Under the pieces are notes generated by a model that made no database searches, was not told where the DNA came from, and saw only the letters and a list, made by a program, of their open reading frames with translations. From a phage, in sequence record PX915678.1: 64,000 nt of DNA, one strand, 5' to 3'. This document shows positions 18,828-25,962 of the stretch, one piece after another. A program made the translations under genes and the position numbers. Every line of letters starts with the position of its first letter. Within the stretch, counting starts at the first letter, position 1.

Positions 18828-19070
18828 TTATTCCTTAATTCCTAGTACTTGTTTAAAAGTCTCATCGTAATCAAGACTTTGGCCCGTTTGCTCTTTATGT
18901 TTGTATATAATATCACTTACTTCTGATAGCATATTTTTATATGAACGAGTTAAAGCAGATTTAAGCACGCTGTATCTATCAGGAAATTTACCATGTTCAT
19001 TATAATACGCTATTGCTAATTCGCGGACTGCCTTTTCAGCAATCTCCATATATTCTTTACGCTTTGTCAT
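18828..19070 (-). CDS. hypothetical protein
   Basis: 80-aa ORF. Confidence 0.45.
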
Positions 19071-19072
19071 TT

Positions 19073-19462
19073 TTAATCCAAAATATTATTAGGCATTGGT
19101 TGAACACTCGCAAGTTCTTTAAAGAACTCAGTAGAGTCAGGTAATTTAACCATTTCCGGAGCATGCTTGCTAAATTTGTGTTTACAATGACGGCATTTAT
19201 ATTCAAGTTCCGGTTTACGCCAGTTAATCAATTGAACCTGTTCAGTACCGCATTCAGGACAATTAGGAACATTTTTAGAAGCCCTTTCGCGACGTTCAAC
19301 CATAGCTATAATAGCATCCCAGGCTGGAGGTTTAAAGTCTAAATCATCACAACCATGAATCTTTCCACGCATTTCTAAATCGTCTTCTTCACCAGCCATA
19401 ATAATTTTAATTAGACTGGAATTACTTGAAGCTGCAATATCTTCTAATAGACGCTTTTTCAT
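19073..19462 (-). CDS. hypothetical Zn-ribbon protein
   Basis: 129-aa ORF with CPEC...CRHC four-Cys motif. Confidence 0.5.
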
Positions 19463-20385
19463 TTCAGTACCTCAATAGCATCACGTAAACCATTTGCTTT
19501 GGCGGTTAAAGCCTTAAGAACTTTAGTATGCTCTTCAATCTGTTTTTCAACTTCAATCAAACGGGCACTGAGATATTCGCGTTCTTCTTTCATAGTATCA
19601 TTCCCATGATTGGGCTTTGGTGCAGATTTAAATTTACTAGGGTCCTTTAACTTAATAACAACTTTAGTTTCAAACAGTGAAAGACCATAATTCGTATTAT
19701 CATCAAAGGATTCAACTACGTCCATTTTAGACAATAACGTACGAAGATTATAAGTCAAAGAACGAATCGTTTTATTATGTTTATTAGCTTCACGCGGTTT
19801 CATATATGGAAGATTTTTATATATTTCATGCGGAGCACAAACAATAATTGACAATTCAAATGGTCCATTCTGTGATGATGGAATGAATTTAGCCGTAACC
19901 CAATCTTTTACATTTACATTAATAGTACGGTCATCGCCATGACAAAACAGTCTACGAGAATGCTTAAAAAGCATATTCACATTATTATTAAATTCGTGTG
20001 AAAACTCACTAGCAAATTTTTCTTTACTATTTTTAGAAAACCATTCTTCTAAATAAGTTCTTTTCACGTCATTAATAATATTAAATGTAACAACATTAGC
20101 ATTTGATACATTAGTCTCAATGTAGCTTGGATACATAAATTTTTTAACATTATTAACAGCTATCACAGAAGATAGTAATCGGGAACGTTTGAACCACTCT
20201 AGCAAAGAACCAAGAGAATGTGAATATGCATTTTGTGTATCTTTACAAATATGGTTTTCCCATCCAATATAGTCTAAAAAATCACGAAGAATATTATTGA
20301 TTACTGCTCTGTGTCCGATCTGATAATTACGGTGTTTAGTAATAAGACTGTCAAAATAATCAATATAATGTTTACGAGTTTTCAT
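19459..20385 (-). CDS. coiled-coil-tailed paralog family protein A
   Basis: 308-aa ORF, N-terminus MKTRKHYIDYFDSLI, C-terminal ~45-aa heptad-rich tail. Confidence 0.6.
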   Translation of the reverse strand: MKTRKHYIDYFDSLITKHRNYQIGHRAVINNILRDFLDYIGWENHICKDTQNAYSHSLGSLLEWFKRSRLLSSVIAVNNVKKFMYPSYIETNVSNANVVTFNIINDVKRTYLEEWFSKNSKEKFASEFSHEFNNNVNMLFKHSRRLFCHGDDRTINVNVKDWVTAKFIPSSQNGPFELSIIVCAPHEIYKNLPYMKPREANKHNKTIRSLTYNLRTLLSKMDVVESFDDNTNYGLSLFETKVVIKLKDPSKFKSAPKPNHGNDTMKEEREYLSARLIEVEKQIEEHTKVLKALTAKANGLRDAIEVLK

Positions 20386-20437
20386 GTTCTTCTCACTTGG
20401 TTAATGATTTATGCTCCGAGCCATCCTTGGCTTTAAA

Positions 20438-21439
20438 TTACTTAATTAACTGTAAAGCTTGTTCAAGACGATCCAGGCGATTAACAGATTCTTCCCAAAT
20501 CCTTTTAGCCTGCTCATATTCTTTCTGCGCTTTATTAGAAATTTCTAGAACTTCTTTATAAGCCTTTTCTAGTGCAATAACTTCTGGACGAATTTCTACA
20601 GGTTCAGGCGAATCATCAAGATTATCCATTAGTTCCTCAAGTGTAATTTCTTCTTTAGGAGTATTCACAATTTCATCACATTTTTGTTGGTAAATTTCTT
20701 TATCAGTCGGTGAGTACGCACATTTCACTTCACGAAGACTAACTACAATTTTATATCCTTCCCAACCGCATATATTCTTAAAAGGATACGTATGAATATT
20801 TTCTACTGTTTCCATACAAAGTAATGCGGTTTCTAATTGACGAGTTATAGTGCTAGCAATTGAGAAAAATTTATTAATGTTCTTTTGGTTAGTTTCTGGT
20901 GTAAAAAATCCATAATTCACAAAAATAGATACTTTATTTTTATCAAGTTCATATTCTTTTATGATAATCATATCAGAAGCCAAAGGATGAATTTGACGAT
21001 AATCGCCATAACATAATTTAGAAGCTGATTTTAGAATCTGTCCTTTGAAAAGTCTGAAATTACTAATCCAACGACGAGTAAAAATATTCTCAGGGTCTTC
21101 TTTATTATTAAGATGATAAGAATTAACATCACCGAACCAATTATATCCTACTACATCTTTGGTTCGTTTAATTTCTTTCCCAAAATTACCAAGAATATCC
21201 CGATTAACCAAATATGAAAGAAGACGAGACTCTTTAAAGGTTTTCTTGATAACATCTTTATCTACACGGCTAGAAATTTTACGAATTTCATGAATAAATT
21301 TAACAGAAGAAACAATACTTGCGTCAACACTATTGAGCCATTGATTGATAATAGAAATAACGCTATTTTGACCAAACATCGGTATAGCTTTATCATCAAT
21401 AACACTATTGAATGATTTGATATATTCGTTACGAGTCAT
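20438..21439 (-). CDS. coiled-coil-tailed paralog family protein B
   Basis: ORF from MTRNEYIKSFNSVI (333 aa), C-terminal heptad-rich tail. Confidence 0.6.
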   Translation of the reverse strand: MTRNEYIKSFNSVIDDKAIPMFGQNSVISIINQWLNSVDASIVSSVKFIHEIRKISSRVDKDVIKKTFKESRLLSYLVNRDILGNFGKEIKRTKDVVGYNWFGDVNSYHLNNKEDPENIFTRRWISNFRLFKGQILKSASKLCYGDYRQIHPLASDMIIIKEYELDKNKVSIFVNYGFFTPETNQKNINKFFSIASTITRQLETALLCMETVENIHTYPFKNICGWEGYKIVVSLREVKCAYSPTDKEIYQQKCDEIVNTPKEEITLEELMDNLDDSPEPVEIRPEVIALEKAYKEVLEISNKAQKEYEQAKRIWEESVNRLDRLEQALQLIK

Positions 21440-21496
21440 ATTAATCTCCTCAGTAGAAAGTAAGAACATTATACCACATCCTTGTGGCGAAGTAAA

Positions 21497-22519
21497 CTAG
21501 TTTAGTGCATTTAATGCATTGTTCAGTTTAGAACGTTGCTTCGTAAGATTTTTGACTTTTTCTTGAGCTTTTTCTAGTATCTTTTCAGCTTCTAGCACTT
21601 CATTAGTTGCTTTAACGAGTTCATCATCTACTGCCTTGATAGACTTCTCAATCGCATCTGCATGCCATTTTTCAACAGGTTTAAGACTCGGATTTTCAAC
21701 AGGAAGAAAATTCACTTTATTGAATTTCCATGAATCCTTATTACCTGAGCTATACATCCAAAATTTAGGATCGTTTGATGAGTAATTGGATAAATTTAAT
21801 TTATCTTGCACTTCTTGCTTTTTCTCTTGCGGGACTTCGTCCTTTCTCAAAAAATCGTATTTAAATGAAACGATCATATCAAGTTCATATGTTGTTGTGT
21901 CTAATTTAAATCGCTCAAAACGAGGTAAAATCTTAGACTGAACACTAGCAACAACATCCATATACTTAAATGCTTCTGTCAACTGTGATTTAAGGCATTC
22001 ACAAATTGAAAGAGAATTTTTTGTGTTAGGTTTAAAGCTAATTCGTGCAGTTCTATTATTTTCTTTTAATGGTCTTACTTCCATCTGAAGAGTATAACCA
22101 TCAAATTTCAGATTCTTTAAGTTAATATCAGAACCTTTTAATCGACTCGCAGTTGATAAAATTTGCTTTAATTGTTTACGGAATAGAGCAATAAATCTCC
22201 ATTCAATACGATAATGATTTGGATTGAAAAATCCAGATGATAAATCGACCTTACTTTGACCAACGCCTTGAACAAATAAAGGATTTTTATAATCAATAGT
22301 TTTACAGAAATCGGTGAGCTGCTCACGGGCCGTCATTTGTGTAATATATCCTGCTTTACTAAAATTACGCACCCATTCACTGCTATTCGTATACTTAAAG
22401 TGATGAATAACACGATTAACTTTATCAGGGTCTAAATTATTTTCACACAAAAATGTCATAACATCACGAGTATAGCTGGCATTACGAACCATATCTTCAA
22501 TTTGAGAACGAGTTTTCAT
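21497..22519 (-). CDS. coiled-coil-tailed paralog family protein C
   Basis: 340-aa ORF MKTRSQIEDMVRNAS..., motif FKYMDVVASV similar to LSKMDVVESF in A; C-terminal coiled coil. Confidence 0.6.
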   Translation of the reverse strand: MKTRSQIEDMVRNASYTRDVMTFLCENNLDPDKVNRVIHHFKYTNSSEWVRNFSKAGYITQMTAREQLTDFCKTIDYKNPLFVQGVGQSKVDLSSGFFNPNHYRIEWRFIALFRKQLKQILSTASRLKGSDINLKNLKFDGYTLQMEVRPLKENNRTARISFKPNTKNSLSICECLKSQLTEAFKYMDVVASVQSKILPRFERFKLDTTTYELDMIVSFKYDFLRKDEVPQEKKQEVQDKLNLSNYSSNDPKFWMYSSGNKDSWKFNKVNFLPVENPSLKPVEKWHADAIEKSIKAVDDELVKATNEVLEAEKILEKAQEKVKNLTKQRSKLNNALNALN

Positions 22520-22527
22520 GGTGTTCC

Positions 22528-23439
22528 TTAAGATTTAAGTAAATCAACAATTTTAATTAACTTTTCACGCTCAGATTTAGCTTTACTATTCAGTCCAGAT
22601 AGTCTGAAAATTTCATCATCATATTGTTGAATAGAAATATTCAGCTCTTCAATCTGTTTATTAAAATAATCAATTTGTTCAAAATGTTTTTCGTTACTAT
22701 GAACTGGTACAGGTTTTGTAGGCAATGTAGTTGAACTGGATTCATCCGGGCGATAAATTAAAATACAACTTGAACCAATAGGGCATTTTGCATCAGATGA
22801 ATATTCTAATGTTCCAGCTTCTTTTAAAACTTCAAAAGCTAAACAGAGATGATGACCCATATTGACATAATCTGTAGAGTGAGCTCTGATATAATAATCA
22901 TCGCCACGAGTACTAAATTTAAAGCATTTAAGGTCTTCTGTATTATTGGTCTTAAAAATCATTTGTTTATCTAGACCTTTAGCTAATCGAGCGCCTAATG
23001 CTAATAATCGTCTTTGATTTTCCCACAAATCCGCAATCATTTGATCGAATGATAATTTTGGCATTAGTCGACCATAAAGGTCATATCCTTTATTATAATT
23101 ACGAAGGATTTCACTCGCGTTAATACGAGACAATGCTCCAATTTTATTAAGGGCTTTCATAATGCGATTAGATAAACTCATTCCAGACCCATTTGTTCGC
23201 TGCAAATGTTTTTCTAATCCAAATCCAATATCAACTTTAAACTTATCTAAAATTTCTGCATGAACATCTCTGTCAATAACATTCAAATCCAAAGTTGGGT
23301 TAAATCTATGAAAAAATTTATCCGGCTCTCCACGGCGAAATACAGTCCATTCATTCATCATTTTTTTATTAACTAAAGATTTAATTACTGCATTGACATT
23401 ATTAATTACTACTGACATATTTTCCTCACTCAATTTCAA
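22528..23439 (-). CDS. coiled-coil-tailed paralog family protein D (most divergent)
   Basis: 303-aa ORF with C-terminal heptad-rich tail. Confidence 0.55.
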   Translation of the reverse strand: MKLSEENMSVVINNVNAVIKSLVNKKMMNEWTVFRRGEPDKFFHRFNPTLDLNVIDRDVHAEILDKFKVDIGFGLEKHLQRTNGSGMSLSNRIMKALNKIGALSRINASEILRNYNKGYDLYGRLMPKLSFDQMIADLWENQRRLLALGARLAKGLDKQMIFKTNNTEDLKCFKFSTRGDDYYIRAHSTDYVNMGHHLCLAFEVLKEAGTLEYSSDAKCPIGSSCILIYRPDESSSTTLPTKPVPVHSNEKHFEQIDYFNKQIEELNISIQQYDDEIFRLSGLNSKAKSEREKLIKIVDLLKS

Positions 23440-23833
23440 TTTTACTAAATATACAGAATAAGATGGAACAGACTATATAAGCACCACACACAGATTGAAC
23501 TAATACCATTCCAAAGAACCAAACAATATTATCAAACAATGTCTGTTTTACGTCGAAAGGACGTAAACTTACAGTAATATTATCACCTTTTTCTATTGAA
23601 GAATACATCTCTGGGGAAATATATTCACTAAATCTATAACCGTCTTTAAGTTCATATACGGCAATAAACGATAAACTAGACCCTTTTCCTTGTGTTCCTG
23701 TAATGGTATTAACTACAGTAACATCATAATCTTTATAATGCATATAATCATTAATTGCGTAATAACCATATGCAACTACTACACATAAACAACATATCAA
23801 TAAATTCAATCTTTTAATTATCAACTGTTTCAT
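23426..23833 (-). CDS. membrane protein (2 predicted TM segments)
   Basis: 135-aa ORF, hydrophobic N- and C-terminal segments. Confidence 0.5.
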   Translation of the reverse strand: MKQLIIKRLNLLICCLCVVVAYGYYAINDYMHYKDYDVTVVNTITGTQGKGSSLSFIAVYELKDGYRFSEYISPEMYSSIEKGDNITVSLRPFDVKQTLFDNIVWFFGMVLVQSVCGAYIVCSILFCIFSKIEIE

Positions 23834-23888
23834 AATAATCTCAATTAAAAGGGCTTAGAACCATTATACCATCCTTGGTATAAAGCGG

Positions 23889-24416
23889 TTATGCGAGTAC
23901 CGTCTTTAACCGTTCTTCAAACTTCCGAAGAGTATTTTGGCGTTCAGCTCTTTGCTTTTTGTAAGTTTCAATACGCTCTGAAATGAGAGTGTATCGTTCA
24001 TTTACCGATTCTTTCATAAAATCAGGAATTTCACGAGAAGCTTTAATCTCGTCAAATTTATCAATAACAGCTTGCTCTTCAGCAATTAAGTTATCATACA
24101 TTAAAATATCTTTCTTGATGAACTCAATATCTTCTTGAGTTACACGAGATAATTTAGATGCTTTATCCTTTTTGTACTGTTCGTTAGTATCACGAGACCA
24201 GTGCAATGTACGATTTTTATTCGTATTTTTGTAAATTTCTACAATACCGATCTCATCAATAATAACGATCCAATTCCAACGGGATTTGTAAATTTGTCCT
24301 CCATCAACAGTGATTTCACCTCCGATTGAGATGTCGTTAAAGAACTTGCTTTGCGCTTCAGATTTAAATTTACCATCGTTGTAATTTACCAAGTTGAAAA
24401 TATCTTTAGCGTTCAT
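23889..24416 (-). CDS. hypothetical protein
   Basis: 175-aa ORF MNAKDIFNL... starting 20 nt downstream of early promoter leader. Confidence 0.55.
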   Translation of the reverse strand: MNAKDIFNLVNYNDGKFKSEAQSKFFNDISIGGEITVDGGQIYKSRWNWIVIIDEIGIVEIYKNTNKNRTLHWSRDTNEQYKKDKASKLSRVTQEDIEFIKKDILMYDNLIAEEQAVIDKFDEIKASREIPDFMKESVNERYTLISERIETYKKQRAERQNTLRKFEERLKTVLA

Positions 24417-25880: not shown

Positions 25881-25915
25881 TGTATAGTACCATAAAGCTT
25901 TATGCTTGTAAACCG
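25881..25915 (-). promoter_or_regulatory. T4 early-type promoter
   Basis: mRNA-sense CACAAAACGGTTTACAAGCATAAAGCTTTATGGTACTATACAACTATCAAC. Confidence 0.55.
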
Positions 25916-25942: not shown

Positions 25943-25962
25943 AGGGAGCCCGAAGGCTCCCT
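25943..25962 (-). terminator. GC stem-loop (AGGGAGCC-UUCG-GGCUCCCU)
   Basis: 8-bp inverted repeat directly after stop of nucleotidyltransferase ORF. Confidence 0.5.

Follow-up and report, generated by a model that had tools for sequence, protein, structure and literature searches.

The stretch of DNA analysed here (the window: 64,000 nucleotides, sequence record PX915678.1) is, judging from its matches, part of the genome of a T4-like phage of the genus Tequatrovirus, and it carries on its minus strand, at 19459-23439, four consecutive open reading frames (ORFs) that are orthologues of T4 nrdC.3, nrdC.4, nrdC.5 and nrdC.6. The original prediction had described these as four consecutive co-oriented genes for proteins of 308, 333, 340 and 303 amino acids; adjacency, orientation and the first three lengths were borne out, and the fourth product more likely has 296 residues. 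Transcription runs from high to low coordinates, in the order nrdC.6 (22528-23418, minus strand; 296 residues from the ATG at 23418; 97% identical to T4 NrdC.6), nrdC.5 (21497-22519, minus strand; 340 residues; 96% identical to T4 NrdC.5), nrdC.4 (20438-21439, minus strand; 333 residues; 97% identical to T4 NrdC.4) and nrdC.3 (19459-20385, minus strand; 308 residues; 95% identical to T4 NrdC.3). The 303-residue reading of nrdC.6 starts at a TTG at 23439 (ORF 22528-23439); the ATG at 23418 is the more likely start, because orthologues in several genera, which open with MS(V/Q)..IN, begin there and the PHROG match runs from residue 8. For nrdC.4, an alternative upstream ATG at 21469 would give a product of 343 residues.

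The gene order agrees with that of T4 (NC_000866): the minus strand reads nrdC.11,.10,.9,.8,.7,.6,.5,.4,.3,.2,.1, nrdC and, further on, gene 49, with the four genes lying between nrdC.2 and nrdC.7. The 5-kb stretch 19000-24000 is matched by 593 phage records (best 95.2% identity), nearly all of them T-even phages of Escherichia, Shigella and Yersinia, and 463 phage records cover 80% or more of the block with DNA identities of 80-99%. Existing classifications do not unite all four proteins. The nrdC.5 product matches Pfam DUF7235 (PF23882) over its full length (428.2 bits, E 2.6e-128, model 1-307 of 307; gathering threshold 30 bits), and it is the only one of the four to do so. Precomputed Pfam labels carried by homologues 89-97% identical assign NrdC.3 and NrdC.4 to PF26897 and NrdC.6 to PF26899, while in PHROGs nrdC.3 and nrdC.4 stand together in phrog_1435 and nrdC.6 stands apart in phrog_2257.

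The original prediction proposed that the four proteins are paralogs with weak but visible similarity. By pairwise BLASTP and phmmer among the four, no pair was detectable except nrdC.3 and nrdC.4, which in BLASTP share 24% identity over 240 collinear residues, so that nrdC.4 is the nearest family member of nrdC.3. Profiles were then built as family alignments from database homologues and related loci and compared with each other in hhalign. NrdC.3 and NrdC.4 matched with 97.6% probability (E 3.7e-12), and with 97.7% once the tails had been cut off; by these alignments the two are certain to be paralogs. The profiles of NrdC.3/4 and NrdC.5 initially matched with 57% probability, which rose to 89.9% (E 1.7e-6, 280 collinear columns spanning both proteins) upon enrichment with a 29%-identical NrdC.4 relative and Mosigvirus orthologues; the score was 52, compared with 16-22 for reversed-sequence controls. 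Hence, nrdC.5 very probably belongs to the nrdC.3/nrdC.4 family at the level of sequence profiles. The N-termini beginning with MKTR and the pair LSKMDVVESF and FKYMDVVASV, quoted earlier as visible similarity, are aligned columns in the profile alignment.

Significant profile similarity was thus found in three of the four groups, but NrdC.6 compared with the other three profiles gave only approximately 1% probability, which is not significant by sequence. A protein of Yersinia phage fHe-Yen9-01, gp94, bridges this gap end to end: it matches the NrdC.6 profile with 42% probability (E 2.6e-4) and the NrdC.3/4 profile with 22% (E 1e-3), with reversed-sequence controls at noise level, and once it is added to the NrdC.6 profile, the probabilities of the NrdC.6 links rise to 17-23%. 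A second protein of the same phage, gp111, lies nearest to the NrdC.5 profile (36%, E 3.8e-4), and its BFVD model is matched by both of the window models described below. At the sequence level the NrdC.3/4 family appears narrow: HMMER with its profile found nine proteins at E 1e-3 among 1.84 billion representatives, with no link to nrdC.5 or nrdC.6, and a scan of viral contigs with a single protein returned close relatives only. Several further candidates for membership were not supported, namely nrdC.8 (175 residues, with C-terminal heptad helices) as a shortened fifth member, for which the profile comparison was not significant, and Acj61 p118, p068, p076 and p079, Yersinia gp100 and a 272-residue ORF of JD18. 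In Acinetobacter phage Acj61, p076 and p077 (locus L011, 9028-11322) form another tandem pair of 372-residue proteins annotated as mutual copies, and no profile similarity of p076 to the nrdC family was seen.

Structure prediction and structure search brought the second line of evidence for NrdC.6. AlphaFold2 models of NrdC.4 (mean predicted local distance difference test score 83.4) and NrdC.6 (77.5) show an identical succession of secondary-structure elements: the N-terminal part has five or six helices and then a small beta meander; next come a long and a four-residue helix, two hairpins with a helix between them, a linker of low confidence and a long terminal helix. The models differ in the meander, which has three strands in NrdC.4 and only single-residue bridges in NrdC.6; the short helix after the long central helix occupies an equivalent position in both. 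Foldseek searches against predicted viral structures (E<1e-3) returned 17 matches for NrdC.4 and 11 for NrdC.6, of which seven are common (E 1e-7 to 8e-4), all being uncharacterised proteins of T4-like phages of 304-335 residues aligned over their full length. On this structural and bridging-sequence evidence, nrdC.6 in all likelihood belongs to the same family as well. We therefore hold with high confidence that all four genes form one old, strongly diverged paralogous family.

A conserved motif marks the end of the long helix and the short helix in all four proteins (NrdC.3 MLFKHSRRLFCHGDDR, NrdC.4 QILKSASKLCYGDYR, NrdC.5 QILSTASRLKGSD, NrdC.6 RLLALGARLAKGLDK), with the consensus h-L-x-x-A-x-[KR]-L-x-x-G-x-D-[KR], of which NrdC.6 has ARL..G.D[KR]. 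As modelled in NrdC.4 and NrdC.6, the common plan is predicted to consist of a fast-evolving N-terminal helical bundle, the conserved helix-turn motif, a four-stranded alpha/beta core, a disordered linker and a heptad helix of 45-55 residues that ends in a motif common to the four. Pfam, NCBIfam, PADLOC and PDB sequence searches found no enzyme, defence-system domain or solved relative, sub-threshold matches being coiled-coil noise, in agreement with the earlier remark that no catalytic motif could be recognised.

The C-terminal tails had been described as heptad-rich helices with acidic and basic residues, and this was confirmed. In a periodicity test on the tails alone against composition-preserving shuffles of each tail, the last 43-58 residues of every protein exceeded the shuffles (p 0.0002-0.005): NrdC.3 residues 266-308 (19462-19590, minus strand; p=0.0014), NrdC.4 residues 285-333 (20441-20587, minus strand; p=0.0036; AlphaFold2 helix 285-332), NrdC.5 residues 283-340 (21500-21673, minus strand; p=0.0002) and NrdC.6 residues 244-296 of the 296-residue form (22531-22689, minus strand; p=0.005; AlphaFold2 helices 246-272 and 278-295). 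An earlier score, the best 28-residue window against whole-protein shuffles, did not discriminate and was dropped. Charged residues make up approximately 36-41% of each tail, with near-equal numbers of acidic and basic ones. NrdC.4, NrdC.5 and NrdC.6 end in RLEQALQLIK, KLNNALNALN and KLIKIVDLLKS, respectively, and KLQAAIKALK is among the endings in a C-terminus-flush alignment of the four proteins and their orthologues. All four C-termini fit L..[AIVL][ILV].[LVAI][LI][KN], a pattern defined post hoc and found only at these four C-termini among the 221 window ORFs of at least 50 residues (27,497 residues); the four proteins and their orthologues in other genera share the ending L-x-x-A/V-h-x-h-L-K. 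This common terminal motif speaks against tails that are alike by composition only.

In NrdC.3, NrdC.4 and NrdC.6, no part is better conserved among orthologues than the tail. Between the two allelic types of NrdC.3 it is 84% identical, compared with 47-49% in residues 111-250; across genera it is 61-65% identical in NrdC.4 (core 39-45%) and 62-70% in NrdC.6 (23% in the N-terminal 80 residues), where DDEIF.L...K.ER is invariant. A relative of NrdC.4 that is 29% identical overall (P0226) has a nearly unchanged tail. Because surface positions of the tail are conserved too, e.g., KLWEESTNRLDRLEQALELLK, the pattern suggests a specific interaction rather than a generic zipper.

The four genes as a whole evolve rapidly compared with their surroundings. 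Against six other Tequatrovirus genomes, the ratio of non-synonymous to synonymous substitution rates (dN/dS) of the four genes is 0.145-0.185, compared with 0.014-0.057 for endonuclease VII, nrdC, nrdC.1, nrdC.8, nrdC.9, nrdC.10 and nrdC.11; at non-synonymous sites, evolution is 3-12 times faster in the four genes than in the flanks. Among the neighbours, only nrdC.7 (0.21) and pin (0.16), whose product inhibits the Lon protease of the host, reach comparable values. In Gaprivervirus and Dhakavirus the flanks are 67-87% identical to the window, versus 44-51% for nrdC.4, 52% for nrdC.6 and 23-27% for nrdC.5. As far as these ratios tell, the four genes are under purifying selection and yet change several-fold faster than the surrounding genes. 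The diversifying selection proposed in the original prediction is consequently upheld as regards the faster evolution, but with gene-wide dN/dS of 0.145-0.185 positive selection is not demonstrated. For nrdC.3, two allelic types occur in Tequatroviruses, 94-98% or 61-62% identical to the window copy. These types sit in neighbourhoods otherwise 93-99% identical (loci L002, L005, L006, L009 and L016), with the difference concentrated in residues 111-265.

Full-length orthologues were found in approximately 550-590 phage records of several genera, and gene number differs between genera of T4-like phages. Tequatrovirus has.6,.5,.4 and.3; Gaprivervirus (VR7) and a Dhakavirus-like phage have.6,.5 and.4; Mosigvirus (AV113) has.6,.5 and.3; and Krischvirus (GEC-3S) has none at this place. 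In Jiaodavirus (JD18) there is a single member of 324 residues, which matches the NrdC.3/4 profile with 92% probability; Acj61 has p120 and p121 in tandem at the same place upstream of nrdC, and fHe-Yen9-01 has two dispersed members. By Foldseek, the structural family extends over T4-like phages of Acinetobacter, Klebsiella, Enterobacter, Pectobacterium, Erwinia, Serratia and Yersinia. The full-length matches of both models comprise uncharacterised proteins of 300-370 residues with heptad-like C-terminal helices, among them Acj61 p120/p121, Acj9, Klebsiella Mineola, JD18_070, Pectobacterium PM2, Enterobacter IME523 and fHe-Yen9-01 gp94/gp111; in Acj61, JD18 and AV113 their genes stand, singly or as tandem pairs or triplets, at the corresponding site upstream of nrdC. 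They differ from the window proteins in being 11-19% identical and mostly undetectable by sequence profiles.

Rearranged copies are found as well. In Salmonella phage Manna, the fusion gene Manna_094 (locus L009, 6215-7252) joins NrdC.6 up to QQYDDEI to the linker and tail of NrdC.4 from VNTPKEE, with the junction at the short common QQ..DEI, and nrdC.5 and most of nrdC.4 are deleted. In a 299-residue protein (P0119, from a 167-kb contig), NrdC.5 residues 146-272 are fused at FN.VN to NrdC.3 residues 134-308, which implies a deletion that removed nrdC.4; the called gene begins at an internal methionine. In Shigella phage Sf25, a 378-residue form of NrdC.6 (P0120) contains an exact tandem duplication of approximately 83 residues (184-266), which could be real or an assembly artefact. 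Furthermore, T2, phage G8 and one IMG/VR genome (locus L005, 9033-10086) carry nrdC.4 either in two pieces or in a truncated form of approximately 155 residues; T2 (H43) and the BFVD entries A0A482N302 and A0A2Z5WKJ2 are among those affected. Taken at face value, these sequences indicate a family that turns over by duplication, loss and fusion.

A function has been reported for one of the four genes. An evolved T4 clone with a large deletion lost infection of ECOR17, the cause being the sirtuin defence gene dsr1, and plasmid-expressed T4 nrdC.5 alone restores plating on MG1655 with dsr1 of ECOR17 (Srikant, Guegler and Laub, eLife 2022, PMC9391042). Its authors dealt only with nrdC.5 and reported neither a mechanism nor a fold or family relationship. 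In the window, the orthologue (21497-22519) lies at the same genome position, and the other three products are paralogs of NrdC.5 in other Pfam families, only 12-25% identical to it. Dsr1 is a SIR2 NADase (an enzyme degrading nicotinamide adenine dinucleotide, NAD). A 2026 preprint (PMC12803255) reports homology between the tetratricopeptide repeat (TPR) sensors of E. coli Dsr1 and Avs7 and names a phage major capsid protein as the trigger of the Dsr1 sensor. In the same locus, the HIDEN-SEQ preprint (10.1101/2025.11.20.689424) reports that T4 nrdC.1 inhibits Septu and that bas37_0203 inhibits Druantia type III. According to the annotation table of this preprint and the Bas37 genome (MZ501089), bas37_0203 is the nrdC.8 orthologue, which is far more conserved than the four paralogs (dN/dS 0.019) and also has C-terminal heptad-patterned helices (p=0.002). 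Three reported anti-defence genes, nrdC.1, nrdC.5 and nrdC.8, thus lie within approximately 5.6 kb. According to the supplements of the preprint, none of nrdC.3,.4,.5 and.6 is essential on K-12, and neither is any of their Bas37 orthologues (10.1101/2025.11.20.689424).

The four genes have the profile of accessory genes, being non-essential, associated with an early-promoter-like site, raised in dN/dS and patchy in copy number. Because their paralog nrdC.5 is reported to disarm Dsr1, nrdC.3, nrdC.4 and nrdC.6 are candidates for acting against other bacterial defences. We consider it rather probable that the array is a modular family of counter-defence proteins, as reported for nrdC.5 and as we infer for the other three. 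The original prediction of inhibitors aimed at variable host targets is accordingly supported for nrdC.5, whose T4 orthologue is reported to act against Dsr1 and which lies among anti-defence neighbours, and stays presumptive for nrdC.3, nrdC.4 and nrdC.6. Our literature search found no paper giving a function for nrdC.3, nrdC.4 or nrdC.6 and none describing the four as one family, Pfam keeping three separate families. The T4 ORFs as such and the counter-defence phenotype of nrdC.5 were known already, and this is not a new kind of system; the four-way paralogy, the common modular plan, the terminal helix motif, the tail-terminator-like core and the structural spread across T4-like phages appear to be new.

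The best overall explanation, which we hold with moderate confidence, is one modular, non-essential, early counter-defence family that may work as follows. The proteins would be made early, before late trigger proteins accumulate; such early production would fit the promoter-like GTTTAC...TGGTATAAT upstream of nrdC.4, a site in the nrdC.5/nrdC.4 spacer (21468-21496, minus strand; TTTACT-17-TATAAT with TG) recognised by consensus match only. Each protein would then bind and neutralise a host immune protein stoichiometrically, without catalysis, the variable head setting the target of each paralog. The conserved tail may serve oligomerisation, giving avidity towards oligomeric immune proteins, or a common docking function. 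NrdC.5 would bind Dsr1 directly, and nrdC.3, nrdC.4 and nrdC.6 would presumably target other defence systems.

Several observations weigh against this explanation. In the HIDEN-SEQ preprint, nrdC.3, nrdC.4 and nrdC.6 are not among the highlighted conditionally essential genes, and their log2 fold changes in the two comparison tables available are -0.73 to +0.47 and not significant (10.1101/2025.11.20.689424). The gene-wide dN/dS well below 1 means that the faster evolution could reflect relaxed constraint. Individual copies are, on sequence evidence, readily lost, nrdC.4 recurrently, as seen from its splitting or truncation in T2, G8 and the IMG/VR genome and from the deletion of nrdC.4 and nrdC.5 in Manna. 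The low profile score of NrdC.6 counts on the same side.

Nevertheless, the available alternatives are less satisfactory. It is possible, though clearly less probable, that nrdC.5 alone is a counter-defence gene and that the other three have unrelated early functions, e.g., in nucleic-acid transactions, with ancestry and architecture in common. The two published screens consulted record no phenotype for nrdC.3, nrdC.4 and nrdC.6, paralogs at 12-25% identity often differ in function, and the core is a common alpha/beta sandwich that is also weakly matched by LAGLIDADG-type models (Foldseek probabilities 0.08-0.44). However, the locus is packed with the reported anti-defence genes nrdC.1, nrdC.5 and nrdC.8, all four genes have similarly raised dN/dS, comparable to pin, and presence/absence turnover between genera combined with K-12 non-essentiality is typical of host-specific accessory genes. 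That the copies are decaying duplicates without present function is very improbable: they are non-essential in the laboratory, and frameshifted, fused and deleted copies exist, but dN/dS of 0.145-0.185 indicates purifying selection, full-length orthologues persist in approximately 550-590 records, tails and central motifs are nearly invariant across genera, and the function of nrdC.5 has been demonstrated. There is a slim chance that three paralogs stand beside an unrelated nrdC.6, alike in size, C-terminal helix and position by chance or convergence; its profile-profile value is at the level of reversed-sequence controls, and it forms a separate family in both Pfam and PHROGs. Against such independence stand the element order shared with NrdC.4, seven of 11 Foldseek matches (E<1e-3) in common, the full-length matches of gp94 to both the NrdC.6 and NrdC.3/4 profiles and the presence of the common central and C-terminal motifs in NrdC.6.

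A further alternative, itself a variant of the main explanation, starts from the core fold of the NrdC.4 and NrdC.6 models, which resembles that of phage tail-terminator and tail-completion proteins (lambda gpU 3fz2, T5 p142 8bcp, Mu 9khy, SPP1 gp17-like 9fkb and DUF3168 9mu2), the predicted core having the gpU-like alpha/beta sandwich. The proteins might be early imitations of this fold, acting as non-activating decoys that occupy sensors of virion proteins, which we regard as improbable; it is weakened by the fact that the reported trigger of Dsr1 is a capsid protein. In its more adventurous form, given an equally low chance, the platform would be derived from a virion fold of tail-terminator type, and early look-alikes joined by their coiled-coil tails would plug TPR-type sensors (Dsr1, Avs-like) before the real late proteins appear, one sensor per paralog, with duplication, loss and fusion of copies tracking the host defence repertoire. 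That the four proteins are themselves tail terminators was rejected. The nrdC proteins gave no Pfam, NCBIfam or PDB sequence match to tail terminators, they have in addition a helical bundle at the N-terminus and a long heptad helix at the C-terminus, and their genes are non-essential and lie on the early strand in the early nrdC region, not in the tail module. The label "tail sheath stabilizer and completion protein" of nrdC.5 in RefSeq T6 (NC_054907; locus L010, 3501-4523) was discarded as an annotation error because the name was copied from a mis-registered Shigella phage record, and the baseplate labels of nearby small genes likewise.

Under the counter-defence interpretation, the closest working analogy may be DSAD1 of an SPbeta-group phage, which blocks the sirtuin defence protein DSR2 via its sensor domain (PMC10981675, PMC11087589). 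Both NrdC.5 and DSAD1 would be non-enzymatic phage proteins stopping a SIR2-type NADase with a virion-protein sensor; the target of DSAD1 is DSR2, triggered by the tail tube, and a tandem paralog family is not known for DSAD1. DSAD1 was absent from all searches run here, in which no similarity comparison with it was made. The internal proteins of T-even phages are alike in forming a related accessory set at a variable locus, whose members block particular defences and are swapped between phages. They are, however, small proteins that are packaged in the head by means of an N-terminal signal and then injected, whereas the nrdC proteins have approximately 300-340 residues, no signal and another architecture. 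In Acj61, p064 and p065 (locus L011, 1229-3938) code for a nicotinamide phosphoribosyltransferase beside a ribose-phosphate pyrophosphokinase. Such a gene pair has been described as an NAD+ reconstitution route against NAD-depleting defences; it meets the class of defence opposed by nrdC.5 in another way.

The surroundings of the array contain further genes and candidate signals. Downstream lie nrdC.2 (19073-19462, minus strand), whose 129-residue product carries a zinc-ribbon-like CxxC...CxxC segment at its C-terminus (a sub-threshold match to Pfam Zn_ribbon_8, E 1.6e-5), and nrdC.1 (18828-19070, minus strand; 80 residues, 99% identical to T4 NrdC.1). T4 nrdC.2 is a shorter form (79% match over 78% of length), and both forms occur among close relatives. 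Upstream, nrdC.7 (23426-23833, minus strand) separates the array from nrdC.8 (23889-24416, minus strand; 175 residues), which belongs to the same early gene run and is 99.4% identical to bas37_0203 (Bas37 = KarlGJung, MZ501089). This part of the T4 genome is an early region. In a consensus scan, the region overall showed no enrichment of promoter-like sites over shuffles. A short element recurring in similar form, CCAAGGATGG or CACAAGGATGTGG, is present in the spacers upstream of nrdC.3, nrdC.4 and nrdC.7 (approximately 20405-20436, 21470-21496 and 23860-23890, minus strand), directly before TATAAT in two of the three; the copy upstream of nrdC.3 lacks a good -10 and could form a small hairpin. 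Between nrdC.11 and nrdC.10, a strong GC-rich hairpin AGGGAGCC-TTCG-GGCTCCCT followed by TTTTT (25943-25962, minus strand) is succeeded directly by an early-promoter-like TTTACA-17-TACTAT with TG (25884-25912, minus strand), which from the letters looks like a transcription unit boundary. The GC skew of the window flips near 50 kb, negative before and positive after, and marks the switch from minus-strand early/middle genes to plus-strand genes.

Even in T4, the best-studied of all phages, three of these four genes for proteins of approximately 300 residues are without assigned function. If the four indeed form one family, the single data point of nrdC.5 and Dsr1 would become a testable prediction for three more T4 genes and would extend to dozens of uncharacterised genes in T4-like therapy phages of Klebsiella, Acinetobacter, Yersinia and other hosts. 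The common plan points to sites for mutation, i.e., the head for specificity and the tail for the shared function. The array would furthermore exemplify a counter-defence family that grows, contracts and recombines, with relevance to the evolution of phage host range.

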